Shown one piece after another: positions 4,559 to 50,811 of a stretch of 64,000 nt of DNA. A model generated the notes under the pieces. The model searched no databases and was not told the origin of the DNA. It worked only from the letters and a program-made list of their open reading frames with translations. The DNA lies in contig JADHPT010000001.1 in assembly GCA_016778305.1 (NCBI GenBank), forward strand, positions 136,457 through 200,456, read 5' to 3'. The stretch's first letter is position 1. Each line of letters begins with the position of its first letter. The translations under genes were made by a program, and so were the position numbers. The DNA is from Poseidonia sp. (GTDB lineage: Archaea; Thermoplasmatota; Poseidoniia; Poseidoniales; Poseidoniaceae).

Positions 4559-4584
4559 CTGAAGCATCGCCGTCATATGGGATA

Positions 4585-4880
4585 GGTGGGGAGCTCGGCG
4601 TACCCTGTACCTCAAATCGTCGTTATGGTGGACTGAACGCCTTGGGGCGGCGAAAGCGGCCATTAGGTTCCCGTAGGCGGACGTTGATGTCTCGCCCCCA
4701 CATGACTCGGGTGTCATGAACTGTATCCGGAAGGAGACAGGGAGTGAATAACCGGGGGACTAGGTCAGGCCGGGAACGGAGCAGCCCTACCTGGGGCCAT
4801 GGGTGCTGTGGGGTGTCGGGATGGAGGATGCTTGCGGATTTGGCTTGATGGTACGAGCGTCCACCCTTGGCTCTCCCACC
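4585..4880 (+). ncRNA. signal recognition particle RNA (7S / SRP RNA)
   Basis: 296-nt stretch with no credible ORF. Contains the helix-8 signature GGUCAGGCCGGGAACGGAGCAGCC (GGAA tetraloop closed by C-G, AGCAGCC SRP54-binding loop). 5' GGUGGGGAGC pairs with 3' GCUC(U)CCCACC to form the terminal helix. Length matches archaeal 7S RNA. Confidence 0.7.
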
Positions 4881-5374
4881 TAAATGTCAAAAACAACATC
4901 TGCGAACCATCCAGGGCCATCAAACGAAGGTACATCCTGCCACTGGCTAGCTATTGTTTCCCCCTTTCTAACTTCAGCAACACGAAGTTCGTGGGTCGTA
5001 ACGGCCTTAATCTCAATTTCCCTTTTGACGGTATTGCCGTTAATCCATTGAACATGCGCTACCAATACGAGACCATGTTCAGTTTCCTCAACACGGACCA
5101 ATGAATCGACCAACCATTCTTGGTGTACTTCATTTCGGTACAATACTTCCTCAATCCATGCGATGAAGAGAAATGACCGATCAAAAGGAGCATGTTGGCT
5201 TGTCACCCGCCACTCTCCACTGTGCCTCACCTCAGTTTTGATATCTTCATAACTTTCAGAACTCATCAAATAATTTTGAACTCCGTGGGCAGCTTCTACA
5301 AAGAGACCGTCAAAGCTTGACGCAAATACGCGAAGACCAACATCGGCGGTGGTGGGCCAAAGCCATGAACTCAC
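4880..5374 (-). CDS. archease
   Basis: 164 aa. N-terminal TTADVGLRVF (cf. HTADIGIR) and C-terminal ADVVFDI (cf. AEVIFDI) archease signatures. Confidence 0.8.
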   Translation of the reverse strand: MSSWLWPTTADVGLRVFASSFDGLFVEAAHGVQNYLMSSESYEDIKTEVRHSGEWRVTSQHAPFDRSFLFIAWIEEVLYRNEVHQEWLVDSLVRVEETEHGLVLVAHVQWINGNTVKREIEIKAVTTHELRVAEVRKGETIASQWQDVPSFDGPGWFADVVFDI

Positions 5375-22830: not shown

Positions 22831-23025
22831 TCACCTCAAAACTCCATCCATGTCCATGTCAAGAGTGTTAGCATGGCCGCAGTGCCGACTAAGGCGGTGG
22901 TGCGCGTCGCCTGAAGCCGCTGCGTGAAATTGCGGAGGTACCACGTCAACACCCCGCATATGGCAACAATAACCCACAAGACATACCATGCAGGTGGATA
23001 AGGTGACACAGAAGGGCCTGTTCAC
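22831..23025 (-). CDS. small Cys/His-rich ORF (64 aa), possibly a real peptide
   Basis: FCVTLSTCMVCLVGYCCHMRG...HHRLSRHCGH. Its ATG overlaps the stop of the giant upstream gene (ATGA) and it ends 5 nt before the PqqD-like gene. Could be spurious. Confidence 0.3.
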   Translation of the reverse strand: MNRPFCVTLSTCMVCLVGYCCHMRGVDVVPPQFHAAASGDAHHRLSRHCGHANTLDMDMDGVLR

Positions 23026-26000
23026 AATGTGCCATCAAGATATTGTTGTCCGTAATAGGTCCACTGTTCTTCTGTCCAACCTGCTGGTAAGCCGCTCGCA
23101 GGTAATGGCGGGCCCGTTGGTGCGATTTCGACAGGTACCGTCGGAGCATTGATGGCTTCCTCAACGGGTTGATCTGCTGCAATAGTGGATACGTTGTTTC
23201 GGTCGCTGGTTGGAGGTCCTGAAATCGGTGCGACTTCTTTATGATATTCATTCCCTTCAAATCCGAGTTCTTCGTCTCGATTTCGGGTGCCTCGTAGCAT
23301 GAATACGAGGAGTGCGACAAATGCAATGCCTCCGATGCTCCCGCCTACCATCACAACGGAACCAAACGAATCATCTTCCGGTGGTTGTTCAAAGGATAAC
23401 ATCACCACCTGAGTAGATCTCAGTTCACCATCATCTGACGCAACGACAAACCTCACTTCTCCATCTAGCGGTCCGTTGAGATTGAGAACCTCGCAGCGAT
23501 TTTGGTTAAATTGTGGCGTTATGTGCCCTGGTGTGGCTTCAAATTGAATGCCTGTAGAATTGATCAGGCGTTTATCGCATGTAACCTGCCAACCCTCATC
23601 TGCAGATGCTGTGAGCGTGTACTGTTCTGTCATGGTTGAGGAGGAAGTATGATTCACCCAGATACTTGCCGCTGTGCCGTAATCTACGATGCCAGGGATG
23701 GATGGTGCTGCGGTCATCACCATGCTGCGTTGTTGGTCAAGAAGAATCATTGATTCGTCCATTAAGATGATTGGTAAATTTTCTTCATCAACGACACCAA
23801 TGACATCAAACCGAATGACGAATTGTGTGTTGAGGGGTGTGTCAGCAGGCACGATGACTTCAACTCGTAGTGTCACATTCGAACTAGCCGGAATGATGAG
23901 TTCGACTTCTGAACCCATTTCTTTTTGTCCCCCATCGATGGTGAAGAATGAAATGAGGCCAACTGTAGGAGGTGAAGAGGATAAGGTGGCCACTACAGAG
24001 AGACGGTTTTCTACCGCATTACCATCATTGAACAAAACAGTTTCAGCATAAAACATCCCATTCGCCATCGTTGAACCACTGTTTGATGAATGTCCGAGTG
24101 AAGGTTGCCGGACTGCGCCAGTGGCTGCCAACACTTCGACGCTGTTATCAGTCGGGTTGGAATCGATTCCCTCAGTCATGATGACTGCCTCGATATTGAT
24201 GTTGTGCAATTCGCCGGCGGCTTCCGTCATCGGAAGCATAACCCACAGGGTTACGTTACTGATGTGCATGAGGTCGTACGAGACACTCAGATCAATTGGA
24301 CCTGTGTGTTCTTCATTTTCAATTGTGAGCCACCAAGTCCATGTTTCTGGTAAATCAATTGGATTGATTCCAACTTGCGTTGGGCCGTTTCCTTTGTTTT
24401 CAACAATTAATTGTATTGCGTTTGGGATGCTAGGCGTTAGTTTCGTCGGAGCCTCTCCAATGGAAAGAGCAACATCGTGCGTGGTGCTAACACGCATCCG
24501 GTCAAAGGAATCACCTTCTACAGTCATGAAACTGCGTTGAGATTCAATGACTGGTTTAATCGTGGGGCCACGATCATTAGCGATTGCATTGTGAGGGACA
24601 TCGATAACGATTTCAAATGTGGTTGACATCCCTGAATTGAGGACTGCGTCAGGCCGAGTCGGTTGATGAACAACCCACTGACCCGCATCTTCTACCAAAA
24701 CGCTCATCGCAAAAATATCTTGTCGGGTCGCATTATTCCATATCATATATTCAAGGACGATGGATTCTCCAGCATCGACAAAATACCAATCAGAATCTAT
24801 GTCTGAAATGAGCATCACTGATGCATCGCTTATCATTGATGCAGATATTGGTATATCTGCGGATGCTACCCGACTCGTATCGTTTTGAGAACGAAGCGTG
24901 AATTCAACATCAACAATCGTATCAGGTGCAGCAGTTTCTGGAACTGTCATGGTCATCAGCACGTTGAAAACATCATCTGGCCTCAACAATACCGATGATG
25001 GTTGTGACCAAGCGAGACCGACAGACCAACCACTGGGTAGAGAAGAAGTATCAATATCCACATCAAATACATCGGTGGCATCTCCTTGATTGGTGATGCC
25101 GACCTCAAAGGTGCAGGTGTATGATGGTGGGCAACTTGGACGGACACTCGGGGGAAGGATGACGGGGATTCTGTCAGCCATCACAAGGAATTGGACGGGC
25201 ACAACGGTTGAAATGCTCGAGTATTGCATGGAACGAATTGAAACACTCATTTGTTGGAACCCGATGCTAGCGTTGGCATCTGGTTTAATCATGATTTGAA
25301 ACGGAGTAGGGGTTCCGGGAATCGTCATCAGCCCCTCCAATGGGTCGAGACTTGTCCCGGATGGACGTGCATAATAGGCATCCCACCCAGTAGGCAACCC
25401 GATCATCTCAGGAATGAAAAATTCTGAGATATTACCGGTATTCAAGATCTCGATATTGATGCTTCCCCATTCACCAGGTATTGCACCATTTGTCCCCGTC
25501 CCTTGGGCAGACACATTGTAATCTGTCATACGCACCTTCTGATCATATAAAATGACGATTTCATCAATGTAGAATCCAATGTCGGTGCCACTTGCGTCTG
25601 AGGTAAACTCAAATTTGAATTGGCTGGATGAATGGAAGAGGTCCGCTGCTACAGGGAGAAGTGGGGAGGTTGCACCTTTGTTGTTGAAGCTGAATGTATT
25701 CCAATTAGCACCGTCCGTAAAATCTTGGTCAACGGTTCCTGAAATAGTTCCTATTTCTGACCAAGCACCGAAAACGTTGATTCCATAAACCGTTAATTTA
25801 TCATTGGCGAGTGTGCTCCCAGTGTAATAAAATGAAAGTCCATTGGTTCGCAGTGGATTGCTGATAGCATCCGATAAATCCATGACAGGTGTTGTCATTA
25901 TGGACAGTGCATTGTTATTGTAGGTCGACAATTGACCGTTTCCTGCATGGCAGCTGCGACCCTTCGAAATTGATGTATCAGTACTAAGTGTCCAACCTGA

Positions 26001-26594
26001 GCCAAGAGTCCATTGTGTCGTTGCATCGCAATTGAAGTATTCATAGCCAACGGCAAAACCTTGCGACATTGCATCATTGCTTGGTACATCATCGGATATC
26101 GTTGATGTCGCACGCATGACCAAGGTATGGTTTCCCGAATACGTTGGAATGATAACAAGGTTGGCTGTATTGCTTGATCCGGGGGAAAGTGATGCCATTT
26201 GGACGGTCGTATTAACGAATTCAAAATAGGTATACTCATTGTGGAGCAATAGGACATTCACATCGATGACTCCCGATGAAGCCGTACCAATATTTTCAAC
26301 TGTCACGGTTAAGGATGTGGACACGTTGACCATTGAATCGATGACGTAGAGTTCTGCGGGACGATTAAAACCCAAAATTGGATGATTGGATGAAAACATT
26401 CTGTAATTGTCTTCATCCGTGCTTGTTGTATAGGATACTGAGACGTCGATGACACGTACGTCAACACCCGTTGGGTTGCTTGGACTCAATAGCGGCGAAG
26501 CCTTTTCGAGCCAACTCACATTCGAAAGAGGCGAACCCAGCATAATGAGGGCAAGGATAAGAGGTACGATTCTCCGCATGTTGACCATAAACAC
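23022..26594 (-). CDS. giant Ser/Thr/Asn-rich surface (S-layer/adhesin-like) glycoprotein with C-terminal TM anchor
   Basis: 1190 aa. Signal peptide MRRIVPLILALIMLGSPLS. Many N-x-S/T sequons and beta-rich repeats. Single C-terminal TM helix and a 90-aa cytoplasmic tail ending PAGWTEEQWTYYGQQYLDGTL. Confidence 0.8.
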   Translation of the reverse strand: MFMVNMRRIVPLILALIMLGSPLSNVSWLEKASPLLSPSNPTGVDVRVIDVSVSYTTSTDEDNYRMFSSNHPILGFNRPAELYVIDSMVNVSTSLTVTVENIGTASSGVIDVNVLLLHNEYTYFEFVNTTVQMASLSPGSSNTANLVIIPTYSGNHTLVMRATSTISDDVPSNDAMSQGFAVGYEYFNCDATTQWTLGSGWTLSTDTSISKGRSCHAGNGQLSTYNNNALSIMTTPVMDLSDAISNPLRTNGLSFYYTGSTLANDKLTVYGINVFGAWSEIGTISGTVDQDFTDGANWNTFSFNNKGATSPLLPVAADLFHSSSQFKFEFTSDASGTDIGFYIDEIVILYDQKVRMTDYNVSAQGTGTNGAIPGEWGSINIEILNTGNISEFFIPEMIGLPTGWDAYYARPSGTSLDPLEGLMTIPGTPTPFQIMIKPDANASIGFQQMSVSIRSMQYSSISTVVPVQFLVMADRIPVILPPSVRPSCPPSYTCTFEVGITNQGDATDVFDVDIDTSSLPSGWSVGLAWSQPSSVLLRPDDVFNVLMTMTVPETAAPDTIVDVEFTLRSQNDTSRVASADIPISASMISDASVMLISDIDSDWYFVDAGESIVLEYMIWNNATRQDIFAMSVLVEDAGQWVVHQPTRPDAVLNSGMSTTFEIVIDVPHNAIANDRGPTIKPVIESQRSFMTVEGDSFDRMRVSTTHDVALSIGEAPTKLTPSIPNAIQLIVENKGNGPTQVGINPIDLPETWTWWLTIENEEHTGPIDLSVSYDLMHISNVTLWVMLPMTEAAGELHNINIEAVIMTEGIDSNPTDNSVEVLAATGAVRQPSLGHSSNSGSTMANGMFYAETVLFNDGNAVENRLSVVATLSSSPPTVGLISFFTIDGGQKEMGSEVELIIPASSNVTLRVEVIVPADTPLNTQFVIRFDVIGVVDEENLPIILMDESMILLDQQRSMVMTAAPSIPGIVDYGTAASIWVNHTSSSTMTEQYTLTASADEGWQVTCDKRLINSTGIQFEATPGHITPQFNQNRCEVLNLNGPLDGEVRFVVASDDGELRSTQVVMLSFEQPPEDDSFGSVVMVGGSIGGIAFVALLVFMLRGTRNRDEELGFEGNEYHKEVAPISGPPTSDRNNVSTIAADQPVEEAINAPTVPVEIAPTGPPLPASGLPAGWTEEQWTYYGQQYLDGTL

Positions 26595-41846: not shown

Positions 41847-43088
41847 GTGCGGACCCTCTTATTGAATTGCGGACCCATGGTTCATTTCTCAACCTCCGGA
41901 ACAACTTCACGCCCCTCCATTGAGAATTCAGTTTATCCAGTTGGAAAGGGAATTATAATAGAAGGTGATAAAATAATCACTATTGGTGATTCAGAAGACC
42001 TGGAATTCGAATATGGAAACGACTCCGATCATCTCGTCATTGATGCAGAAGGGGGAGCAATTATTCCCGGGCTCATTGATTGCCACAGTCACCTCTTGTG
42101 GTCTGGCGACCGTTCTCAAGAAGTACGATGGAGGTTGGAAGGCAAAACGTACCGTGACATCAGCACTATGGGCGGGGGCATCCAATCAACGGTGGATGCA
42201 ACTCGGTCTTCTTCGAAAGGTGAACTTCACAAAGAAGGATATGTCCGTCTCAGAGCGGCTTTACGTTCAGGAACGACTCACATGGAAGTCAAGAGCGGAT
42301 ACGGACTTGATACAAAAACCGAGTTGGACCTCCTTGAAGTATCATCAATACTTAGTTCAGATGAAAACTTACCAACTCTGGATCCAACGTGGATGGGAGC
42401 TCATGACACGCCAAAGGAAATGACTCATGAAGCCTACATTGATTCCTTGATTCATGAGCAATTGCCGGCGATTGTAGACCAAGGGATTGCACGTTCTGCT
42501 GATGTATTTTGTGAGCCAGGTTGGTTCAGCGTTGAAGAAAGCGAGGACATTCTGAAAGCATCTCGTACAGCTGGTCTCAATCTTCGCATGCACATTGATG
42601 AATTCGAAGAATCTGGCGGCGGCCAGTTGGCAGCAGAACTCAAGGTTCAAACAGCAGATCATGCATATCACACATCTCTCGATACGCGATTGAACATGAA
42701 AGAGGCTGGAGTCATGACCGGTTTCTTACCCGGGACTCCGTATGCGATGGGTGACCCCTGGCCTAATATGTCAGAAGTACATGAATACGGCATACCTTAC
42801 ACACTCGCTACAGATTTCAACCCGAATTGCCAAACACTCAGTCTCCCCTTCATGGCATCACTCATGGTCCAGAGGTGCAGAGTTCAGCCCCTTGACGTGC
42901 TCGCTGCTATGACGGTCAATGCAGCGAAGAGTTCGCCACACACGAATGGAGATCATGGAATTATTCAAGAAGGTGCAATTGCAAACATCAATATTCTTGA
43001 CAGTCCGAACTGGGAGTCATTCTCACTCAAACCCAGCCATACGCCCTTTAGAGCTACCATATTGAATGGGAAGTTCATGACACATTGA
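41847..43088 (+). CDS. hutI: imidazolonepropionase
   Basis: Amidohydrolase fold. IPGLIDCHSHLLWSGDR, GTTHMEVKSGYGLD, RMHIDEF. Confidence 0.85.
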   Translation: MRTLLLNCGPMVHFSTSGTTSRPSIENSVYPVGKGIIIEGDKIITIGDSEDLEFEYGNDSDHLVIDAEGGAIIPGLIDCHSHLLWSGDRSQEVRWRLEGKTYRDISTMGGGIQSTVDATRSSSKGELHKEGYVRLRAALRSGTTHMEVKSGYGLDTKTELDLLEVSSILSSDENLPTLDPTWMGAHDTPKEMTHEAYIDSLIHEQLPAIVDQGIARSADVFCEPGWFSVEESEDILKASRTAGLNLRMHIDEFEESGGGQLAAELKVQTADHAYHTSLDTRLNMKEAGVMTGFLPGTPYAMGDPWPNMSEVHEYGIPYTLATDFNPNCQTLSLPFMASLMVQRCRVQPLDVLAAMTVNAAKSSPHTNGDHGIIQEGAIANINILDSPNWESFSLKPSHTPFRATILNGKFMTH

Positions 43089-43166
43089 ATATCTCTCAAC
43101 TATTCTTTTAGATTTAGGTACAGTAATTGGCTTGCAGAAATTAATTAAGTGATTCTCATGGTTTGG

Positions 43167-43475
43167 ATGGAAACGATTGTTTGTTCGGGGAAAAAAGGAA
43201 GCGATGCTCGGTTACGCAGAATGATCAAAGCAAGACTCGAATACAAACGTCGTCAAGATGGTTGTATTGGTGCATGGATTGGACGTGGAGCTGAAGACGG
43301 TACGTTGCTCCTCGTTCAATCTGCTTTCACATCGGCCCAGGCTTGGAAGAGAATCTCTTCAGAGATCAAAGAAACTCTAGACGCCCAAGATGGTGGAATT
43401 GAGACTTTGCTCTTGGGGCCGCCACTGGTTGGGATCTTTGAAATCGATGAGACAGACTTTTCCATTCTCGATTAA
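43167..43475 (+). CDS. small alpha+beta protein, weak ABM/Dabb-like pattern
   Basis: ~100 aa. Assignment tentative. Confidence 0.35.
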   Translation: METIVCSGKKGSDARLRRMIKARLEYKRRQDGCIGAWIGRGAEDGTLLLVQSAFTSAQAWKRISSEIKETLDAQDGGIETLLLGPPLVGIFEIDETDFSILD

Positions 43476-43740
43476 TCACAATCGGCCAACATTCCATGGC
43501 ACATAATGTCGCATAATGTGAGTTATGCGTCATTGACCGCTCATCGATTATTTCCAATAGATCTGGAATTTAGTAAAATGGCTCGCAGTATGCCTTTTAT
43601 TCCCAGATGACATCACTCGCCATGCAACAAATCCTAATTTTCACCCTCCAACCCCCTACTTTTCGTAGGAAAGTGTGTATTTTTTCAACAAAGGGAGGGA
43701 AGTATTCAAATCACAAATCATTCAGGCGAAATTGAGTATC

Positions 43741-43893
43741 ATGACTGCAATCGAAGGCTATTGCCTCAAGTGTAAAACATACGGCCCCATCCGCGACGGA
43801 AAAAAAATCGTGATGAAGAACGGTCGGACGAGAATGGCAGGATTTTGCTCACAGAAGGGATGTTCGGGTAAGATCTCAAAAATCATCAGCTAA
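43741..43893 (+). CDS. small zinc-ribbon protein (~50 aa)
   Basis: MTAIEGYCLKCKTYGPIRDGKKIVMKNGRTRMAGFCSQKGCSGKISKI. Two Cys pairs flank a basic hairpin. Resembles a widespread ~50-aa zinc-ribbon family (name recalled from memory only). Confidence 0.5.
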   Translation: MTAIEGYCLKCKTYGPIRDGKKIVMKNGRTRMAGFCSQKGCSGKISKIIS

Positions 43894-43919
43894 TTCCAAC
43901 ACCGTCTGCACCGAATTGG

Positions 43920-43927
43920 TTTAATAC
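43920..43927 (+). promoter_or_regulatory. putative TATA box (TTTAATAC) ~27-33 nt upstream of tRNA-Val
   Basis: Position and composition fit an archaeal tRNA promoter. Confidence 0.4.
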
Positions 43928-43952
43928 AATCCTTCGGTGGCAAGAACACCTA

Positions 43953-44029
43953 GGGCTCGTGGTCTAGGGGTTTATGACGTTGCCTTGACATGGCAAAGAT
44001 CGAGAGTTCGATTCTCTCCGAGCCCACCA
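43953..44029 (+). tRNA. tRNA-Val (anticodon GAC), intronless, genomically encoded CCA
   Basis: Hand-folded cloverleaf. Acceptor GGGCUCG/CGAGCCC. D-arm with GG. Anticodon stem UUGCC/GGCAA with loop UUGACAU. T-arm GAGAG-UUCGAUU-CUCUC. Discriminator A then CCA. Confidence 0.9.
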
Positions 44030-44093
44030 GTGAATAGTATCTAGTCGTTCAGGGTAGGATTGGTAAATTAATTCTCTTTGAAATATTAATTAA

Positions 44094-44453
44094 TTAATCT
44101 TCATCATGGATGATTTCAACTTCCAATGAATCAGATGGTTCGATGAGCGCCACAGGTTCATCATCATCTTCAAACGAAAAGTCAGTAGAACCGCCTTCCC
44201 ACGATTTCACATCATCTGATTCTTCAAACGATTCCTCTGGCAATACTGCCCCTGGACCAAGAGAGTAAATGCTCGGGTCGAGGGGTTCTTTTTCTTCCAC
44301 AAGTGGGCTCGCAGGAGCTTCACGTTCCTCCATAATCGATCCTGCATGGAAGGTGCCACATTCGTGACACCTGTAGGTTCCTTTACGATCCAAACAGCCA
44401 CATACAGGGCATGTTGTCAATCCAGCGTAGGCATCAATCGGGTCTGAATCCAT
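44094..44453 (-). CDS. zinc-ribbon protein with acidic C-terminal tail
   Basis: 119 aa. N-terminal CPVCGCLDRKGTYRCHECGT zinc ribbon. D/E-rich tail. 4-nt gap to the upstream paralogous gene. Confidence 0.55.
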   Translation of the reverse strand: MDSDPIDAYAGLTTCPVCGCLDRKGTYRCHECGTFHAGSIMEEREAPASPLVEEKEPLDPSIYSLGPGAVLPEESFEESDDVKSWEGGSTDFSFEDDDEPVALIEPSDSLEVEIIHDED

Positions 44454-44457
44454 GCGC

Positions 44458-46263
44458 TCACTCTATGAACATGTCATCTTGATATCCGGTGACCAGGTCT
44501 CCAGTACCATCTTCTTCAATGGTCACAGTACCCTCGTCGTCATCAAATTCGATAATCGTACCAAAGACTTCCTCATCATCAAAGAGTAGTCCGACATGGG
44601 ATCCGATGTCAATCTCATCGTCTTCATCATCATCTTCTGAATCCTCTTGATCATCCTCGGATTCTTCTACATCCTCTTCCTCGTAATCTTCATGATCCTC
44701 TTCGTGTTCTTCGCCATCATCGGGATCGTCGCTTTCTTCTTCCTCAACCCCTGATTGGGTTGCATCGGCTCTGTCATCCTCAACTTCCTTCATAGCTTTG
44801 GCACGCGCTCGCCATGATGGTGCTTTGATGAGGTGCAAGAACAGCGAGGAAATCATTCCCATTACAGAGAGGAGGATGAACAAAATACCATCCCAATAAA
44901 ATCCCTTGGGCATTGATGATGAATCGCCTGCGAATGGAGTGAGGGAATTGTCGCATCCACCTTCTTGATATTTCACATCACAAGGGTACGGATCGCCTTC
45001 TGCAATGTCAAATGGTGGGACAACATTGTTCGGTTCATAGAAGACTGTACCACCACTTCCATCAACTGGCCCTATGAGTCCATTGACAAGAAGAATGGCG
45101 ATCGCAATCCCGAAGGCGGTGTGCAGAATTGGCCAAACAATATCGTTCCATTGTTTGGACATCATTCGCTTTTGCATCGGGGTAGGAAATGGCTCCTCAA
45201 TTATTGATTCAACTTCATCATCCATTTCTTCGATAGCGCCAATGAATTCGGTAATGTCAATCATTCCATCATTATCGGAATCGATTTGTTCGATCAAGGC
45301 TTCAATATCTTCCCCATCAAATTCACCTTCGTAGTCATTTGTTAGGGAGGAGCGCAGTTCTTCCATTGAAACCTGGCGGTTACCGTCTTTGTCGAGATCG
45401 TTGAACATACGTTGGGCCGAAATATCATGCTCTTCCATGAGGGCGACAAGGGCATGCAGTGGACTTTCAACATCGATATTTTCGTCGCTGTCTTCATCAA
45501 GATCAAAATCTTCCTCATCCATTTCGGCCTGTGTTGCACCTTCATCGGAGTCGTCCAGGTCTTCTGAAGAATGATGTACTTCATCTGATTCGGAAGTGTG
45601 ATCCTCTTGCGACTCAGGGGCTTCGTGTTTGAGTACAACTTCCTCTTCGGAGTCTTCCGCCACTTCCTCAAGTTCTTCATCGGATTCAGCCTCCTCTTCG
45701 TCCATGTCCGCTACAATATGCTCATCAGAATGAGCATCATGATGATCTGTGTCTCCGTGAAGAATTGTTTCAAACTCATCGAGGTCGATTACCCCGTTAT
45801 CATCAGCATCAATCTCCTTGACAAGTCTGTCAACTTGAGAAGGTGGTAAATCAGCGAGGTTGAGGCTCAACAAACCTGCCTTTAACTCCGATGCATCGAT
45901 CATGCCATCAGAATTCGTATCGAATTTCTGAAATAATTTTCGAATTTGAACGCCGGTATCATGCACCCATTTTCGCAGGATATCAACCACATCGTCTGCA
46001 ACGAATACGACATCACACTCAGGACATCGGGTGGAATCAAGAGGGACTAACGCATTGCAAGCTCCACATTCCCCAAGAGCTTCTTCTGATACGCCTGAAA
46101 ATTGAGTGTTACACTCCGGACATTCTGTAGAATCCAGGGGTATCAATGCTCGACACGAACCACATTCCGCCATGGGAATACTATTTTTTCCCTCGTCACT
46201 CATCTTTCCACCGATTCCATGGAGGGCGTCTCCAATTATAATGCTTGATGGGATTTTTATCAT
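44458..46263 (-). CDS. double zinc-ribbon, four-EF-hand, two-TM highly acidic membrane protein
   Basis: 601 aa. Two zinc ribbons (ECGSCRALIPLDSTECPEC; ECGACNALVPLDSTRCPEC). Four canonical EF-hand loops (DTNSDGMIDASE, DADDNGVIDLDE, DKDGNRQVSMEE, DSDNDGMIDITE). Two TM helices flank a Cys-containing loop. Long D/E tracts. Confidence 0.7.
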   Translation of the reverse strand: MIKIPSSIIIGDALHGIGGKMSDEGKNSIPMAECGSCRALIPLDSTECPECNTQFSGVSEEALGECGACNALVPLDSTRCPECDVVFVADDVVDILRKWVHDTGVQIRKLFQKFDTNSDGMIDASELKAGLLSLNLADLPPSQVDRLVKEIDADDNGVIDLDEFETILHGDTDHHDAHSDEHIVADMDEEEAESDEELEEVAEDSEEEVVLKHEAPESQEDHTSESDEVHHSSEDLDDSDEGATQAEMDEEDFDLDEDSDENIDVESPLHALVALMEEHDISAQRMFNDLDKDGNRQVSMEELRSSLTNDYEGEFDGEDIEALIEQIDSDNDGMIDITEFIGAIEEMDDEVESIIEEPFPTPMQKRMMSKQWNDIVWPILHTAFGIAIAILLVNGLIGPVDGSGGTVFYEPNNVVPPFDIAEGDPYPCDVKYQEGGCDNSLTPFAGDSSSMPKGFYWDGILFILLSVMGMISSLFLHLIKAPSWRARAKAMKEVEDDRADATQSGVEEEESDDPDDGEEHEEDHEDYEEEDVEESEDDQEDSEDDDEDDEIDIGSHVGLLFDDEEVFGTIIEFDDDEGTVTIEEDGTGDLVTGYQDDMFIE

Positions 46264-46321
46264 TTTCTTGGATTAATTCCTTAGAACAGTTCCTCTTGGG
46301 TTTGACAAGGGGGTCCTCATC

Positions 46322-47182
46322 ATGCTGGGTTTGTATACGCTTGAACATGTGTCACATGATGCCACCTATTCTTGGTTTGAAGCAGCAACAGAGACTGTTG
46401 ATGTCAACCGAATATGCATCAGTAGGCTGCCACTACGAGCGCTCTTGCGCCATGTATCACCTTCTGGCACCCGTTGTTTTTGGCTCAGTGACCATCAGGG
46501 GCCAGCATCCATTCCACCTACTTGCGACGAAGTGGAATCCCGATTGAACAAAGAATTCGATGCAATACCCTCCTTTGTTCTCCTTGAGGGTTTGGACTGG
46601 ATCTTGAATAACGATGGTGAGGAAACGGTGCTGCAATTCCTACAACGTCTTGATCAACGGTGCCGTAGCGGCAACCATGTCGTCGTTTTTCCCGTTGATC
46701 CTTTGGTCTTTTCATCACGCTTTTGGTCTCGACTTCATTCAATAGCGCCCATGTTGCAAGGGCATCATGGATACGACGAAACGGACAATATCCCGTCTGT
46801 GACATCCAACTATGAGCCCGACTTGCCAGACACCACTCAACCAAAAGAGCAGGAACGAACGTTGGTACAATTGGTCGAGTTGCCGCGACGCGGATTTAAC
46901 AAAACCATTCTTTCAAAACGTATGCTTCAATGGAAAAGGATGGGCATTGATATTTCTGATTTGGAGCCTGCAATGGCGACTGAAGACATGGACAAAGCCC
47001 ATGGGATTTATTCCGAGGTTGAATCATTGGTTAAGGTTGCAGTCGATTTATGTCGCCTCGTTGACGCGAGCCGAGATAAATTAACCGTTACAGAGCGAGA
47101 GATCATGACATTCAAAATCATGCAACTTTCTTCCGTCAGTGAGGTAAAACAGCGACTAGAAGAAATCCTCGCCACGAGATAG
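46322..47182 (+). CDS. DUF835-like domain protein
   Basis: TRCFWLSDHQGPASIPPTCDEVESRLNKEFDAIPSFVLLEGLDWILNNDGEETVLQFLQRLDQRCRSGNHVVVFPVDPLVF fits the archaeal DUF835 pattern (family name recalled from memory). Confidence 0.5.
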   Translation: MLGLYTLEHVSHDATYSWFEAATETVDVNRICISRLPLRALLRHVSPSGTRCFWLSDHQGPASIPPTCDEVESRLNKEFDAIPSFVLLEGLDWILNNDGEETVLQFLQRLDQRCRSGNHVVVFPVDPLVFSSRFWSRLHSIAPMLQGHHGYDETDNIPSVTSNYEPDLPDTTQPKEQERTLVQLVELPRRGFNKTILSKRMLQWKRMGIDISDLEPAMATEDMDKAHGIYSEVESLVKVAVDLCRLVDASRDKLTVTEREIMTFKIMQLSSVSEVKQRLEEILATR

Positions 47183-48724
47183 TAGGCCATGTTCTGCTTC
47201 CAAGCGTGCAAGCCATCCTCCATCTTGCAATTGACTGCTGAGCTCAATGAGGTCATTGGAAGTTGAGCGGTCTCCCCTTAGGGGTTCCACGATGGTTCGA
47301 ACGAGTCCTTTGAAGCCATGGACGTGTGGTGCAGGGTTCAATTCTTCGTGCTCGAGGGCTTCGCAAGAAATCAAAGCCTCACAGGCGAGGATTTCAGCAA
47401 GATGCTGAGTTGATTCCAATAAATTCCATGCTGATGTAGCACCCATGCTGACGTGATCTTCCTGGCCAGCAGAGGTTGAGGTAGAGAACGCTGTCCGTGG
47501 GCCAGCTCTTCCATGTAATTCAGATAATGATGCTCCCGCCACATACTGTACAATCATGAGTCCCGACTCCAAACCTGAATTATGAGTTAAAAAGGCGGGC
47601 AAATCACTACGTGCAGGATCCAGCATTTGGTCCATCCTTCGCTCAGAAATAGATCCGAGTTCAAACAGTCCAAGCGTCATTGAATCGCAAACCATGGCTA
47701 CAATTTCACCGTGGAAATTGCCCTGTGAAAGCACTTCATGTGAACCAGGTTGTGAAGGGTTAGGGAATATGAGGGGATTGTCCGTAGCACTGTTGATTTC
47801 AATTCGAATCATTTCGTCTAGACGACGGTAGGCCTCCCAAACAGCACCGTGAACTTGAGGAGCGCAGCGAAATGAATAGGGGTCCTGCACTTTATCACAA
47901 TCCGTATGACTGGCCATGATGGGTGAGTTGGCGAGAAGCGTATTGAGTCGTTGGGCTATCGTTCGTTGACCGGGGTGCGGCCTGGCATTATGCACGAGCG
48001 GGTTTGCCGGTGTTAAACTGCATTTCCTAGCCTCCATCGACGTTGCTAGGATTACATCTGCCAAGACAAGAAGTTCACCTAATGCTTGGTGTGCAAGAAT
48101 TGCAAATGAACACATTTGACTTGTACCATTGATGAGGGACAGTCCGTCCTTAGCCGTGAGCGAAACGGGGAGTATTTCATGTTGCTCAAGTACATCATTT
48201 GTTGGTAGCCTCTCACCATTCAAGAGAACTTCTCCTTCCCCAATGAGTGTTAATGCGAGGTGTGACAGCGGAGCAAGATCACCACTGGCCCCCAGACTCC
48301 CAATACGCGGGACAAAGGGGTGAATTCCGATGTTGAGGTAGGTGACGAGTTGGTTGATACAATCGGGATGGATGCCTGAGTGCCCTTTGCACAAGGAATT
48401 CAATCTGATTACCATCATGCATCGAACGGCTTCAACACTCATCGCTGGACCTATTGCAGTGGCGTGAGATCGGATAAGATTCAATTGCAAGAGAGCAAGA
48501 TCGTCTTGGGAAATACGTTCGTGTACCAGAGCGCCAAAACCAGTATTAATGCCATAGACGGTTTCATTTTCATCCAAAATCCGGTCTACTACGGCGCGTG
48601 CTGCATGAATTTTTGGCCAAGCATCTTGTGATACTTGAACGGTAGCGTGAAACCGTGCAACCATCATAATTTCAGCGGGTGTCAGTGTTTCACCATCGAG
48701 GTGTATTGTGAGGGGATCGTTCAT
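47156..48724 (-). CDS. hutH: histidine ammonia-lyase
   Basis: MIO-forming GSLGASGDLAPLSH. ~520 aa aromatic amino acid lyase fold. Confidence 0.9.
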   Translation of the reverse strand: MNDPLTIHLDGETLTPAEIMMVARFHATVQVSQDAWPKIHAARAVVDRILDENETVYGINTGFGALVHERISQDDLALLQLNLIRSHATAIGPAMSVEAVRCMMVIRLNSLCKGHSGIHPDCINQLVTYLNIGIHPFVPRIGSLGASGDLAPLSHLALTLIGEGEVLLNGERLPTNDVLEQHEILPVSLTAKDGLSLINGTSQMCSFAILAHQALGELLVLADVILATSMEARKCSLTPANPLVHNARPHPGQRTIAQRLNTLLANSPIMASHTDCDKVQDPYSFRCAPQVHGAVWEAYRRLDEMIRIEINSATDNPLIFPNPSQPGSHEVLSQGNFHGEIVAMVCDSMTLGLFELGSISERRMDQMLDPARSDLPAFLTHNSGLESGLMIVQYVAGASLSELHGRAGPRTAFSTSTSAGQEDHVSMGATSAWNLLESTQHLAEILACEALISCEALEHEELNPAPHVHGFKGLVRTIVEPLRGDRSTSNDLIELSSQLQDGGWLARLEAEHGLLSRGEDFF

Positions 48725-50811
48725 TCTATCACCTCTCGCATTCTCATAAGCAAGCCGGCATCCACACGGTGAGGGGTTGTGACCGTCAGGAGAGGTTCGT
48801 GTTCCATTGCACGTTGAATAGCGGCCTCGGCACCTTCATTGCGAGCCCATGCCCTACGAGCAACGCCATTGTTCACATCCCAATGCAACATGGACTGCAA
48901 CCTTCGTTCAGCCTCTGGAGAGCCATCCAATAGAAGGCCAAATCCACCGTTAATGACTTCGCCCCATCCGACCCCCCCACCATTGTGAATGCTGACCCAT
49001 GTGGCACCTCTGAAGGCGTCACCAATCACGTTGTGTATGGCCATATCTGCGGTGAACATCGACCCGTCACGAATGTTTGCAGTTTCACGATATGGGCTAT
49101 CCGTTCCTGAAACATCGTGATGATCTCTGCCGAGTACAACTGGGCCCTCAATTTCGCCAGATGCAATTGCTCGGTTCATAGCTAGTGCAATTTCCCGACG
49201 ACCAATGTCGTCTGCATACAGGATACGGGCTTGACTCCCGACAACCAGGTTATTTTCACCTGCCTGCTCAATCCAGCGTATGTTGTCAAGAATTTGTTGT
49301 CGGACATCTATGGGTGCTTTGGCGAGCATTGAGTGGAGGACTCTCGCTGCAATTTCATCTGTCTTTTTCAAATCTGATTCCTTCCCGCTCGCACATACCC
49401 ATCGATACGGTCCAAATCCATAGTCAAAGCAAAGCGGACCCATGATGTCCTCGACATAGGAAGGATATCGGAAACTACCATCTTCTTCAATCACATCGGC
49501 ACCTGCTCGTGATGCCTCGAGCAAAAATGCATTGCCGTAATCCCAAAAATACATGCCTCTGTGTGACATCATGTTGATTGCATCTGCATGCCTGCGTAGC
49601 GTGGCTTGAACTTCAGTTACGAATCGTTCTGGTTCGTTCACCATCATATTCGTACTTTCTTCATAGGTGAAATCTGCGGGATAGTATCCGCCTTGGTAGG
49701 GATTGTGCAGGCTCGTCTGATCACTTCCCAAATCTACGCGAACCTCTCTCTCAACACATCGTTCCCATAATTCGACGATGTTTCCAACATAGCCGATTGA
49801 AATGGGTCTCATTTCCTCGGCAGCGGCGACCATTTGGTCAATCGCATCGTCCATGGAGTCGGTGACGGTTGTAAGCCAACCTTGCTGGTGACGTTTTTCG
49901 GCAGCATGGCGGTTGGTTTCGGCAATGATACAAGCGGCACCAGCAATCGTGGCAGCTTTTGCTTGGGCGCCCGACATGCCTCCCAAACCACTCGTTACAA
50001 ACGTCACGCCATTCAATGAAGAATCATCGTTCAATCCGAGGTGCATACGTGCGGCATTGAGCAATGTGATGGTTGTGCCGTGAACGATTCCCTGCGGGCC
50101 AATGTACATGTAGGATCCAGCAGTCATTTGACCGTATTGTGACACTCCAAGAGCATTCATGCGTTCATAATCATCTTGACGAGAATAATTGGGGATTACC
50201 ATCCCGTTGGTCACGACGACTCTTGGTGCACTGGCAGATGAAGGAAACAATCCAAGGGGGTGACCAGAGTACATGACCAAGGTTTGTTGGTCAGTCATCT
50301 TAGAGAGATATTGCATCACCAATCGGTACTGCGCCCAATTTTGGAATACTGAGCCGTTGCCGCCATAGGTAATGAGTTCGTCAGGAAATTGGGCGACAGC
50401 GGGGTCAAGATTGTTTTGAATCATCAGCATAATTGCGGCTGCCTGTGGTGTCGTAGCGGGATAGTGGTCGAGAGGGTGGGCTTTCATAGGATATTGATCT
50501 GGCTTGAACCTACGCATAATAATGCGACCATAGGTGTTGAGTTCATCAAGAAATTCAGGCATGAGTGTTTCGTGATGCGCCGGCACAAAGTATCGAAGAG
50601 CATTTTGCAAAGCCAATACCTTTTCATCAGCAGATAAAATTTGACGTCGATTGGGTGCATGGTCTACATCGGTATCGATTGCTTTGCGGGGTGGCAATTC
50701 ATCAGGGATTCCCTCCGCAATGTACTGGCGAAATACCTCAATTGAGTCCACCATGGTTGAGCGAGAATGAAGGATGTCCTTGAGCCTTGTTCCCGCTACC
50801 GCACAAATCAC
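48721..50811 (-). CDS. hutU: urocanate hydratase, long form with ~120-aa N-terminal extension
   Basis: GNGSVFQNW, YGQMTAGSYMYIGPQGIVHGT, GLGGMSGAQ. 4-nt overlap with hutH. Confidence 0.9.
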   Translation of the reverse strand: MICAVAGTRLKDILHSRSTMVDSIEVFRQYIAEGIPDELPPRKAIDTDVDHAPNRRQILSADEKVLALQNALRYFVPAHHETLMPEFLDELNTYGRIIMRRFKPDQYPMKAHPLDHYPATTPQAAAIMLMIQNNLDPAVAQFPDELITYGGNGSVFQNWAQYRLVMQYLSKMTDQQTLVMYSGHPLGLFPSSASAPRVVVTNGMVIPNYSRQDDYERMNALGVSQYGQMTAGSYMYIGPQGIVHGTTITLLNAARMHLGLNDDSSLNGVTFVTSGLGGMSGAQAKAATIAGAACIIAETNRHAAEKRHQQGWLTTVTDSMDDAIDQMVAAAEEMRPISIGYVGNIVELWERCVEREVRVDLGSDQTSLHNPYQGGYYPADFTYEESTNMMVNEPERFVTEVQATLRRHADAINMMSHRGMYFWDYGNAFLLEASRAGADVIEEDGSFRYPSYVEDIMGPLCFDYGFGPYRWVCASGKESDLKKTDEIAARVLHSMLAKAPIDVRQQILDNIRWIEQAGENNLVVGSQARILYADDIGRREIALAMNRAIASGEIEGPVVLGRDHHDVSGTDSPYRETANIRDGSMFTADMAIHNVIGDAFRGATWVSIHNGGGVGWGEVINGGFGLLLDGSPEAERRLQSMLHWDVNNGVARRAWARNEGAEAAIQRAMEHEPLLTVTTPHRVDAGLLMRMREVIE

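Follow-up and report, generated by a model that had tools for sequence, protein, structure and literature searches.

We found that two adjacent minus-strand genes in a 64,000-nt stretch of Poseidonia sp. DNA (henceforth the window) form a conserved operon of the Poseidoniales, and that the larger gene encodes a protein of unusual architecture, in which a double zinc ribbon, two pairs of canonical EF-hands, a predicted transmembrane (TM) hairpin, long polyacidic tracts and a small predicted C-terminal beta-barrel are combined. Judging by these features, the pair is plausibly a Ca2+-responsive signalling component, and we tentatively propose, with slightly less than even confidence, that the large protein senses cytoplasmic Ca2+ and serves as a scaffold while tethered to the membrane. 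As far as we know, archaeal Ca2+ signalling has hardly been documented, canonical calmodulin-like proteins are rare in archaea, and the pair is a rare candidate for calcium sensing in these organisms. Marine Group II archaea are uncultured and belong to the most abundant microbes of the surface ocean; intact metal ligands are kept across at least 147 of their species-level genomes.

The longest open reading frame (ORF) of the large gene occupies positions 44458-46263 (minus strand) and encodes 601 aa, with the 119-aa partner gene 4 nt away. Both ORFs had been reported in a preliminary description of the locus, which also listed the two C4 ribbons, four EF-hand loops, two TM helices, a Cys-containing loop and acidic tracts, all of which we recovered. 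It had called the architecture unrecognised, which fits our finding that the TM-loop-TM module and the C-terminal domain have no Pfam match; the Tudor/SH3-like barrel, the linear motifs of the partner, the DUF835 neighbour and the start at Met21 (see below) were absent from it. The true start of the large protein is probably Met21 of this frame (ATG at 46203), which would give a coding sequence of 581 aa at 44458-46203 (minus strand): homologues begin with MSDEE.. or MAECG, the NCBI models are 581 aa long, and Met21 is preceded by a GGTGG Shine-Dalgarno-like motif at 5 nt and a TATA-like TTATAA at ~35 nt. The N-terminus has neither a hydrophobic segment nor a signal peptide. Aspartate and glutamate (D+E) make up 29% of the protein (rising to 45% over residues 171-275 and to 50% over residues 491-601), against a median of 12.8% among window ORFs of at least 200 aa, of which the second-highest reaches 17.2%. 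Databases name the protein only as an 'EF-hand domain-containing protein'. Its best NCBIfam match, the XopAW family of type III effectors (NF041410), is reached through the EF-hand region at 58.2 bits; we rejected membership of this family, as the score is far under the 120-bit cutoff and EF-hands alone are common to both. The AF2 model of the whole protein has a pTM of 0.25 and gives no confident inter-domain arrangement, and tblastn of the window with the loop, barrel and ribbon found no further copy.

The calcium-related features are four 12-residue EF-hand loops (DTNSDGMIDASE, DADDNGVIDLDE, DKDGNRQVSMEE and DSDNDGMIDITE) arranged in two pairs. Pair 1, at residues 104-170 (45754-45954, minus strand; best Pfam EF-hand_7 stretch 106-167; pLDDT 80-87), resembles the N-lobe of calmodulin, and pair 2, at residues 268-355 (45199-45462, minus strand; identified by Pfam EF-hand_1 and loop conservation; pLDDT 83-86), resembles the C-lobe, with conserved loops at residues 291-302 and 328-339. 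By canonical loops we mean paired loops of 12 residues in which positions 1, 3, 5 and 12 supply oxygen ligands, position 6 is Gly and position 8 is hydrophobic; all four loops fit this pattern, loop 3 having Arg for Gly at position 6, as do 16/69 relatives. Profile thresholds, which the preliminary description had named as the test of its loops, were passed by a wide margin and place the protein in the EF-hand superfamily (EF-hand_7, PF13499, 78.5 bits against a cutoff of 30; EF-hand_1, PF00036, 65.9 bits against 25.4, with four matched stretches; EF-hand_6, 63 bits against 25). Across an alignment of 69 members (species-level plus divergent ones), nearly all residues found at loop positions 1, 3, 5 and 12 (D, D/N, D/N and E, respectively) are permitted ligands, and this is true of each of the four loops; in pair 1, positions 1 and 12 are invariant (69/69) and positions 3 and 5 are only D, N or S. 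Four canonical loops arose in none of 20,000 shuffles of this acidic sequence (mean per shuffle 0.19), and no other real gene in the window has such a loop. We infer that these EF-hands bind Ca2+. Some invariant positions, e.g., GLLSLNLADLPPSQ between EF1 and EF2, are neither Ca2+ ligands nor obviously part of the core. Some divergent members (P0298, P0305) have lost pair 2 or keep it in degenerate form.

Comparisons of both sequence profiles and predicted structure point to calmodulin. A PDB profile search matched calmodulin at E 1e-17 to 1e-21, and Foldseek aligned the predicted structure with calmodulin, centrin and troponin C over ~240 columns (best E 4.4e-5); since this alignment exceeds the length of calmodulin, we read it as both EF pairs matching its two lobes. 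The EF region is best read as a 'split calmodulin', i.e., two lobe-like pairs parted by a polyacidic linker. Four canonical loops in two pairs are what it has in common with calmodulin, centrin and troponin C. Calmodulin, however, is a free protein of ~150 aa with its lobes on a short central helix, whereas the large protein (581-601 aa) is membrane-anchored, keeps its lobes apart with a disordered linker (97 aa here, 89-273 aa family-wide), carries zinc ribbons, a TM hairpin and a barrel on the same chain, and is archaeal and found in one lineage only. The likeness to calcium-dependent protein kinases (CDPKs), whose calcium-binding domain (3l19) was among the structural matches, lies in a calmodulin-like module that is covalently tethered to the part it regulates and possibly binds a basic segment of the same chain; unlike CDPKs, the large protein has no kinase or other catalytic domain, and its intramolecular target is hypothesised. 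Among prokaryotic Ca2+ sensors with EF-hands, the one studied in most detail is EfhP (PA4107) of Pseudomonas aeruginosa. This periplasmic protein with two EF-hands and a signal peptide, which has been proposed as a Ca2+ signal transducer, is likewise prokaryotic and cell-envelope associated, with canonical EF-hands (PMC9132961). It nevertheless lacks the zinc ribbon, TM hairpin, acidic tracts and barrel, and the sequence relationship is confined to the EF-hand motif; with four EF-hands that are predicted to be cytoplasmic and no N-terminal hydrophobic segment, the large protein does not resemble an EfhP-like periplasmic sensor.

The double zinc ribbon at residues 31-85 (46009-46173, minus strand) consists of two CxxC-x10-CxxC units (C34/37/48/51 and C66/69/80/83), whose mutual identity of ~64% by manual count indicates a tandem duplication. 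All eight cysteines are invariant in 69/69 family members, and two C4 ribbons occurred in none of 20,000 shuffles of the large protein sequence. Pfam DZR (PF12773) scores 21.8 bits with the full protein, 27.3 bits (exactly the cutoff) with the N-terminus alone and 27.6-33.6 bits in the divergent members P0305, P0317 and P0298; many relatives carry PF12773 in precomputed annotation, and AF2 predicts short beta-hairpins here (pLDDT 60-77). As in DZR proteins, the tandem CxxC...CxxC pair sits at the N-terminus of a membrane protein. We know of no established function for DZR itself, so the match leaves the role of the ribbons unexplained. An analogy with Spt4/Spt5 (the JGI label of the ribbon is 'RPABC4/Spt4') was rejected because the Pfam E-values are weak (Spt4, 0.15; RPAB4, 0.51) and the resemblance of the barrel to KOW is at fold level only.

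The exit helix of EF pair 2 ends ~15 residues ahead of TM1, where the chain enters a predicted membrane hairpin. Hydropathy marks hydrophobic segments at ~375-404 and 455-482, and AF2 predicts helices at 362-367, 370-397 and 453-506. A basic Met/Trp-rich juxtamembrane segment (FPTPMQKRMMSKQW) and TM1 occupy residues 359-397 (45073-45189, minus strand), TM2 and a conserved basic helix (PSWRARAKAMKE) occupy residues 456-501 (44761-44898, minus strand), and the ~55 aa between the TM helices form a predicted extracytoplasmic loop (residues 398-455; 44899-45072, minus strand) with few K/R and two conserved cysteines, C428 (68/69) and C437 (66/69). The loop motifs GPVDGSGG, YxCDxxYQxGxCxNSLTP and SSMPKGFY are also conserved. 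Family-wide, the median number of K+R is 3 on the N flank and 4 on the C flank of the hairpin, versus 0 and 1 on the flanks of the loop; the positive-inside rule puts both arms inside, and the EF-hands therefore in the cytoplasm. The large protein is thus predicted to be a hairpin membrane protein with both ends cytoplasmic, the zinc ribbons, EF-hands and both acidic tracts lying inside and the two-Cys loop alone outside. The preliminary description had left the side of the EF-hands to topology prediction, and this charge distribution weakens its suggestion of an envelope component.

Within the hairpin, several residues are nearly invariant: P360, P378 and N394 (69/69 each) and H381 (64/69) in the TM1 region, and D458 (66/69), G469 (67/69), H477 (57/69), W484 (67/69) and R485 (66/69) in the TM2 region. 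The polar TM residues N394, D458, H381 and H477 suggest that the hairpin may be more than an anchor; a sensor and scaffold model leaves their role unexplained. No Pfam family matched the hairpin. The TM-loop-TM module occurs in duplicate in the unrelated, Poseidoniales-type P0286/P0291 proteins, which have no EF-hands. Divergent members have other loop and TM sequences; the most divergent of them do not conserve the loop but do conserve the zinc ribbon, EF pair 1 and barrel.

Two polyacidic linkers, both disordered by prediction, connect these parts: linker 1 at residues 171-267 (45463-45753, minus strand; pLDDT <35) and linker 2 at residues 502-548 (44620-44760, minus strand; pLDDT 33-40). 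Across the family, linker 1 is 89-273 aa long with a median D+E of 45%, K+R of 3% and a column identity of 0.32, and linker 2 is 31-107 aa long with a median D+E of 63% (K+R of the linkers, 2-3%). The charge of the linkers is conserved and their sequence is free to vary. The C-terminal domain (residues 549-601; 44461-44619, minus strand) is a predicted five-stranded Tudor/SH3-like beta-barrel with a column identity of 0.80 across the family. Its structural matches include Tudor, KOW and PWWP modules at 5-21% identity, a likeness at fold level only. With no Pfam match even at E up to 10, the barrel is not a member of a Tudor/SH3 sequence family by this test. Judged by eye, its sequence also lacks a clear set of four aromatic residues that could cage methyl-lysine or methyl-arginine. 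The barrel surface is extremely acidic, and nucleic-acid binding is therefore unlikely.

The 119-aa partner (44094-44453, minus strand) shows in alignments three short invariant motifs amid otherwise variable sequence: a Zn ribbon at residues 15-36 (44346-44411), DPSIYS at residues 59-64 (44262-44279) and E..F..W.GG.TDF.F at residues 74-94 (44172-44234; all minus strand). The motifs conserved beyond the ribbon read DPxxYSL and W-x-GG-x-TDF-x-F, the C-terminus is a variable acidic tail, and none of 142 partner homologues has a Pfam domain. It had been described as the same zinc-ribbon motif followed by an acidic tail. The CxxC-x10-CxxC spacing and RCPECG knuckle common to the ribbons of both proteins weakly support the first part, but the partner has its own conserved motifs besides. 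A strict copy of the large protein's ribbon was rejected, given that a profile-profile comparison of the two aligned only 20 columns, at a probability of 53% and E 1.4e-4.

The pair is present in all tested marine Group II (Poseidoniales) archaea, and the partner lies directly downstream of the large gene in 79/79 testable loci; the linkage in relatives that the preliminary description had named as a test of its gene pair holds wherever it can be assessed. Of 56 loci, 27 have a gap of 4 nt; no gap exceeds 7 nt, and in some pairs the two genes overlap. Three of the four divergent members keep the partner (the contig of the fourth ends at the stop of the large gene), two of them despite changed downstream synteny. 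The pair is a conserved Poseidoniales operon. An exhaustive profile search with the non-EF half against 1.84 billion proteins returned 110 matches only, and on this sequence evidence the large-protein family (at least 147 species-level genomes) is restricted to the Poseidoniales lineage. For the divergent members P0277, P0298, P0305 and P0317, assignments to MGIIb, MGIII or other Thermoplasmatota are all possible. A literature search for EF-hands in Poseidoniales or Marine Group II found one paper, with a passing remark on Poseidoniales-specific families with calcium-binding domains; in a diel metatranscriptome paper, the EF-hands concerned were algal.

On the other side of the pair, a divergently transcribed gene (46322-47182, plus strand) encodes a 286-aa protein of the Pfam family DUF835 (iKaiC-type; 40.2 bits against a cutoff of 33.1), and DUF835 was found in neighbours of divergent members at 59.8 and 63.0 bits. 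Such a gene adjoins the pair at 73/80 loci and at 2/4 divergent loci, and a search for homologues of the neighbour gave 20 proteins, all Poseidoniales-type. DUF835 is an output domain of archaeal response regulators (PMC5847659), and the neighbour is a possible third component. Because synteny across the order extends over the entire neighbourhood (hutU-hutH-DUF835-pair-...-hutI), DUF835 adjacency alone is weak evidence of a functional link.

Seawater contains ~10 mM Ca2+. In the sensor and scaffold model, a rise in cytoplasmic Ca2+ would cause the EF lobes to bind Ca2+ and open, and the opened lobes would change which short motifs they hold. Candidate targets would be the two invariant aromatic motifs of the 119-aa protein, which would be co-translated with the large one, and, within the large protein itself, the basic Met/Trp-rich helices next to the membrane. 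Further conserved partners may be brought to the membrane by the barrel and the zinc ribbons, with the DUF835 (iKaiC-like) neighbour as a candidate output. Observations against the model include the acidic and aromatic character of the partner motifs, unlike the basic amphipathic helices usually bound by calmodulin, and an EF pair 2 that is not intact in some divergent members. The ~250-aa EF region, the 53-aa barrel and the 119-aa partner are suitable recombinant targets with which to ask whether archaea signal with cytoplasmic Ca2+, culture of the organism being unnecessary.

Several other explanations of the same features can be considered. The ~170 acidic residues, most of them within the two disordered tracts, and the four EF sites could serve as a high-capacity cation buffer at the membrane that soaks up Ca2+ or Mg2+ leaking in from seawater, akin to calsequestrin-type low-affinity buffers, with the partner and barrel only positioning the protein. 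The exceptional D+E content, the linkers with conserved composition and free sequence and length, and a location at the site of ion entry would all suit such a role, which we nevertheless consider unlikely: a buffer needs neither canonical paired EF-hands with invariant non-ligand residues nor invariant zinc ribbons, a highly conserved barrel and a tightly coupled partner with invariant motifs, and one protein species would hardly buffer much unless very abundant. Rather than plain buffering, the invariant non-ligand residues, the always-adjacent partner and its motifs look like signs of a conserved binding partner. Alternatively, the protein may be a structural tether, its outer Cys loop attached to the S-layer or another part of the envelope and its ribbons and barrel holding some structure in the cytoplasm, for instance the nucleoid, the division machinery or part of the cytoskeleton; in that case the EF-hands would be structural Ca2+ sites and the acidic tracts entropic spacers. 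The conserved two-Cys loop, the duplicated TM-loop-TM module in an EF-less protein, the occurrence of the acidic linker and barrel on several membrane anchors and the resemblance of the barrel to Tudor, KOW and PWWP interaction modules are consistent with a tether. It is an unlikely one, however, as conservation of the loop breaks down in the most divergent members while that of the zinc ribbon, EF pair 1 and barrel does not, as EF-hands paired in the manner of calmodulin typically belong to sensors when the cytoplasm is low in Ca2+, and as so acidic a barrel would be unlikely to bind nucleic acid. Even if it were only a buffer or a tether, the protein would still be a well-defined lineage marker of unusual architecture.

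The conserved polar TM residues raise the further idea of a Ca2+-regulated two-TM channel or transporter, in which oligomerised hairpins would form a pore (cf. CorA, MCU, MscL) gated by the lobes, with the acidic tracts concentrating cations at its mouth. N394, D458, H381 and H477, together with the conserved G469 and P378, the short distance from EF pair 2 to TM1 and an N-in/C-in topology with a large cytoplasmic N-domain, as in CorA, speak for a pore, but we found no significant similarity to channel or transporter families (Zip and PFF1_TM were far under their cutoffs), the GMN and DIME motifs are absent from the sequence, the hairpin is without a Pfam match, and divergent members have other sequences in the loop and TM helices, which makes this explanation very unlikely. 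Finally, the topology could be reversed, with the EF-hand arm outside and binding seawater Ca2+ as part of a structural envelope protein. The periplasmic location of the characterised bacterial EfhP (PMC9132961) offers a precedent, and a very acidic domain would suit a Ca2+-binding surface protein. Such an arrangement would require a stretch of ~350 residues of high charge, with both Cys4 zinc ribbons in it, to cross the membrane without a signal peptide or N-terminal hydrophobic segment, against a family-wide excess of positive charge on the N and C flanks and not the loop; apart from the ribbons, the only Cys pair is that of the loop, which fits a disulfide outside, and we regard reversal as highly improbable.

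An autonomous module, the barrel recurs in other membrane proteins and in a protein (P0287) encoded beside an integrase gene, and the acidic-linker-plus-barrel cassette sits on several different membrane anchors. A viral origin, or viral copies, of the barrel was considered and found no support: scans of IMG/VR with the barrel alignment, P0288 and P0287 and tblastn of P0288 against GenBank phages found nothing, and BFVD gave generic small barrels only (E 3e-3 or worse), so the link to mobile elements comes from gene context only. A more speculative extension, which we consider quite unlikely, is that the pair, perhaps with the DUF835 protein, is a self-contained archaeal Ca2+ device, in which a tethered calmodulin-like sensor would act on an ion-conducting or ion-sensing two-helix module using N394, D458, H381 and H477, and whose barrel would have been copied by mobile elements to interfere with it. 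If true, this would be a tethered-calmodulin-gated membrane transducer in abundant surface-ocean archaea. With one of its copies next to an integrase gene, the reused barrel gives a hint of some conserved interaction with the host.

Both ORFs that the preliminary description placed side by side are real genes on the minus strand of the window: a large ORF (44458-46263; 601 aa as the longest ORF) and a small partner ORF (44094-44453; 119 aa), with 4 nt between the stop of the former and the ATG of the latter. The large gene likely starts at Met21 (ATG at 46203), given that homologues begin with MSDEE.. or MAECG, that the NCBI models of the protein are 581 aa long, and that a GGTGG motif and a TTATAA stand 5 nt and about 35 nt upstream of this ATG, respectively. 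In NCBI, Candidatus Poseidonia sp. MAGs encode a protein identical to the 119-aa one, as well as a 581-aa version of the large protein that falls in its 90%-identity cluster, under the names ‘hypothetical protein’ and ‘EF-hand domain-containing protein’, respectively.

Searches against Pfam bore out the four EF-hand loops in two pairs that had been read by eye, as EF-hand_7 scored 78.5 bits (cutoff 30) and EF-hand_1 scored 65.9 bits over four stretches. All four loops fit the canonical pattern, which never happened in 20,000 shuffles (mean 0.19 loops), and no EF loop was found in the other real genes of the 64-kb window. The proposed tandem C4 zinc ribbons were recovered as two units with a common CxxC-x10-CxxC spacing, and their mutual identity of about 64% (own count) points to tandem duplication; DZR scored 21.8 bits on the full protein and 27.3 bits on the isolated N-terminus (cutoff 27.3). 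Hydropathy also gave the two transmembrane (TM) segments expected around a Cys-bearing loop, whose two cysteines are retained in 68/69 and 66/69 family members. The protein is as acidic as first thought, with D+E at 29% compared with a median of 12.8% and a next-highest value of 17.2% among window ORFs of at least 200 aa. Neither its C-terminal barrel (a predicted Tudor/SH3-like, five-stranded domain) nor the TM-loop-TM hairpin matched any Pfam family, even at E-values up to 10.

An AF2 model of the large protein, built on a 45-sequence alignment (mean pLDDT 63.8; pTM 0.25), does not place the domains confidently relative to each other. From N- to C-terminus it comprises the zinc ribbons (residues 31-85; pLDDT 60-77), EF pair 1 (92-169; 80-87), disordered acidic linker 1 (172-265; below 35), EF pair 2 (268-355; 83-86), a short helix (362-367), TM1 (370-397; about 80), the loop between the TM helices (398-452; low to middling), a long helix made of TM2 and a basic extension (453-506; about 80), disordered acidic linker 2 (507-549; 33-40) and the barrel (556-600; 83-91). 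Foldseek matched the model to calmodulin, centrin and troponin C in the PDB (best E 4.4e-5) over about 240 columns, which exceeds the length of calmodulin, and we thus read both EF pairs as matching its two lobes. Calmodulin was also matched by sequence profile at E 1e-17 to 1e-21.

A word-indexed search yielded over 1,666 relatives, and the best 120 were all 575-692 aa long with the same domains. A species-level scan (one genome per GTDB species) identified at least 147 encoding loci, of which 80 were kept; nearly all 80 are labelled Poseidoniales, Poseidoniaceae, Poseidonia, or generically Methanobacteriota/Euryarchaeota. Two short contigs (L045 and L064), assigned to Salipiger bermudensis and Rhodobiaceae MAGs, show the archaeal HutH-DUF835-pair synteny of the other loci and are probably mis-binned Poseidoniales contigs. 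The half of the protein without EF-hands (TM hairpin, linker and barrel), run as an HMMER profile exhaustively against 1.84 billion representatives, returned just 110 matches, meaning that the family is narrow.

In a 69-sequence alignment, the eight Zn cysteines were invariant and EF-loop positions 1, 3, 5 and 12 were almost exclusively occupied by permitted ligand residues. Column identity was 0.83 in the zinc ribbons, 0.80 in the barrel, 0.74 in the first juxtamembrane segment, 0.72 in EF pair 1, 0.53 in EF pair 2, and 0.32 and 0.35 in linkers 1 and 2, respectively. The linkers range from 89 to 273 aa (linker 1) and from 31 to 107 aa (linker 2) with a steady composition (D+E 45% and 63%, respectively; K+R 2-3%), and selection on them acts on charge, not sequence. 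In one clade (within L040-L077, e.g., L043, L049 and L063), the proteins are longer (about 710-760 aa); the EF-loop pattern occurs six to eight times in them, and they apparently have a third EF pair; an EF-like insertion is also seen in linker 1 of P0076, P0116 and P0023.

The suggested linkage of the two genes held in relatives: 79 of 80 loci have a homologue of the 119-aa partner directly downstream of the large gene, and at the remaining locus the contig ends 21 nt past the large gene. Among the 56 loci in which the stop-to-start distance was measured, 27 have a gap of 4 nt, none has a gap above 7 nt, and some pairs overlap. Four far more divergent members (P0277, P0298, P0305 and P0317) are full-length with the same architecture (the second EF pair being reduced in two), and three are followed by a 103-119-aa gene, while the P0317 contig stops at the large-gene stop; at P0305 and P0277 the small gene is retained with a different set of genes beyond it. 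Some database ‘proteins’ (P0323 and P0339), in which the barrel is fused with the beginning of the partner, appear to be artefacts of frameshifts or gene calling at the 1-7 nt junction.

Partner residues C15, P16, C18, C29, E31, C32, F35, D59, Y63, S64, W85 and F92 are invariant between the divergent members and the window, and the alignment thus resolves into a zinc ribbon followed by the motifs DPxxYSL and W-x-GG-x-TDF-x-F amid variable sequence. The partner had been described as a single copy of the same ribbon with an acidic tail. The ribbon stands, but its being a copy of those in the large protein is weakly supported: spacing and RCPECG knuckle are shared, and a profile comparison aligned just 20 columns, at a probability of 53%. 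The description omitted the two further motifs, and the tail is dispensable.

The window is archaeal, judging by its archaeal SRP RNA (4575-4881) and housekeeping genes (MetRS, proteasome-activating AAA ATPase, tRNA-intron endonuclease, TatC and PntB); it also holds a 1,190-aa ORF (23022-26594, minus strand) without any Pfam hit at E ≤ 1e-5. The pair sits within a histidine-utilisation cluster (41847-50811) with a HutI-like amidohydrolase (41847-43088), HutH (47156-48724) and HutU (48721-50811). This arrangement is kept across Poseidoniales, including two of the four divergent members, where formiminotransferase-cyclodeaminase is additionally found upstream (L088). Upstream of the pair and divergent from it is a DUF835 (iKaiC-type) gene (46322-47182, plus strand; 286 aa, 40.2 bits, cutoff 33.1), kept in 73/80 loci and two of the four divergent loci; its C-terminal 145 aa matched no family. 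DUF835 has been described as an inactivated-KaiC output domain of archaeal response regulators (Galperin and colleagues, PMC5847659). This neighbour evolves faster than the EF-hand protein: identity falls to about 38% in comparisons that leave the latter at about 57%. On the other side, tRNA-Val(GAC) (43953-44029, plus strand, opposite to the small gene and 64 nt past its end) and a 72-aa DUF5679-like zinc-finger ORF (43675-43893, plus strand; 26.9 bits, just below the cutoff of 27) are syntenic in most relatives. Synteny extends order-wide over the entire block (hutU-hutH-DUF835, pair, tRNA-Val-DUF5679-ABM-hutI), and DUF835 adjacency by itself therefore says little; the pair differs from the rest of the block in being tightly coupled and deeply retained.

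The best-supported reading of these features is that the large protein is a membrane-tethered, cytoplasm-facing candidate Ca2+ sensor and scaffold, the core of which would be a calmodulin divided by a polyacidic linker, with the operonic partner as its likely ligand or effector. It could instead be a cation buffer. Against this, and in favour of a sensor, canonical EF-hands occur in pairs, residues other than the Ca ligands and the obvious core are conserved too (e.g., the invariant GLLSLNLADLPPSQ between EF1 and EF2), the tightly coupled partner has invariant short motifs, and a neighbouring gene bears a signalling-type domain (DUF835). Counting against a sensor, the acidic, aromatic character of the partner motifs is not that of classic calmodulin targets. 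A structural tether and a Ca2+-regulated two-TM channel are further rivals. The hairpin seems to be more than a greasy anchor, since P378 and N394 never vary and D458, G469, H381 and H477 rarely do; by membership criteria the protein is an EF-hand protein and falls outside known two-TM channels, as well as outside calmodulin proper and EfhP-like sensors, while its barrel falls outside the Tudor sequence families.

The sensor reading places the EF-hands inside the cell, and the family-wide charge distribution predicts the same: median K+R is 3 before TM1 and 4 after TM2, compared with 0 and 1 at the loop flanks. The protein is accordingly predicted to be N-in and C-in, with zinc ribbons, EF-hands, acidic tracts and barrel cytoplasmic and the two-Cys loop as the sole outside part. 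A reversed topology, in which a strongly acidic arm of about 350 residues, two Cys4 zinc sites included, would have to be exported, is disfavoured by the K+R on the outer TM flanks and by hydropathy, which detected no N-terminal hydrophobic segment. An unrelated family of about 610-640 aa (P0286, L085 1541-3460; P0291), with a basic N-terminus and neither EF-hands nor zinc ribbons, carries the TM/two-Cys loop/TM unit twice, suggesting that the hairpin-loop is a module in its own right.

Poseidoniales-specific gene modules have been noted to include families with calcium-binding domains, without further analysis (PMC9258230), and literature searches on EF-hand proteins of Poseidoniales gave nothing beyond this remark. 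The component domains are known, but no earlier description was found of the architecture, which the preliminary description could not place either, of the partner or of the order-wide conservation.

The HMMER profile search also recovered the acidic linker and barrel together from other proteins. P0287 (154 aa; L082 6601-7065, L083 4720-5184, L084 111-575) ends in a copy 76% identical to that of the window and adjoins a tyrosine integrase gene, with a DNA methyltransferase nearby on L082 and HNH endonucleases on L083, which suggests capture by a mobile element. In P0288 (1,361 aa; L081 8001-12086) the barrel lies internally. Behind it is a region with weak similarity to a NinI-like phosphatase (PHROG E 3.8e-4), in which we read a metallophosphatase-like motif. 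The 41-kb contig that encodes P0288 may be viral; in the 20 kb examined, the called genes all share one strand, and known domains are absent from most of them. No barrel copies were found in IMG/VR or GenBank phages. P0283 (124 aa) has a copy 86% identical to the window's, and in P0318, P0293 and P0343, small membrane proteins with anchors of other kinds, the acidic-linker-plus-barrel cassette is C-terminal. The presence of the barrel in such varied proteins points to an autonomous interaction module.
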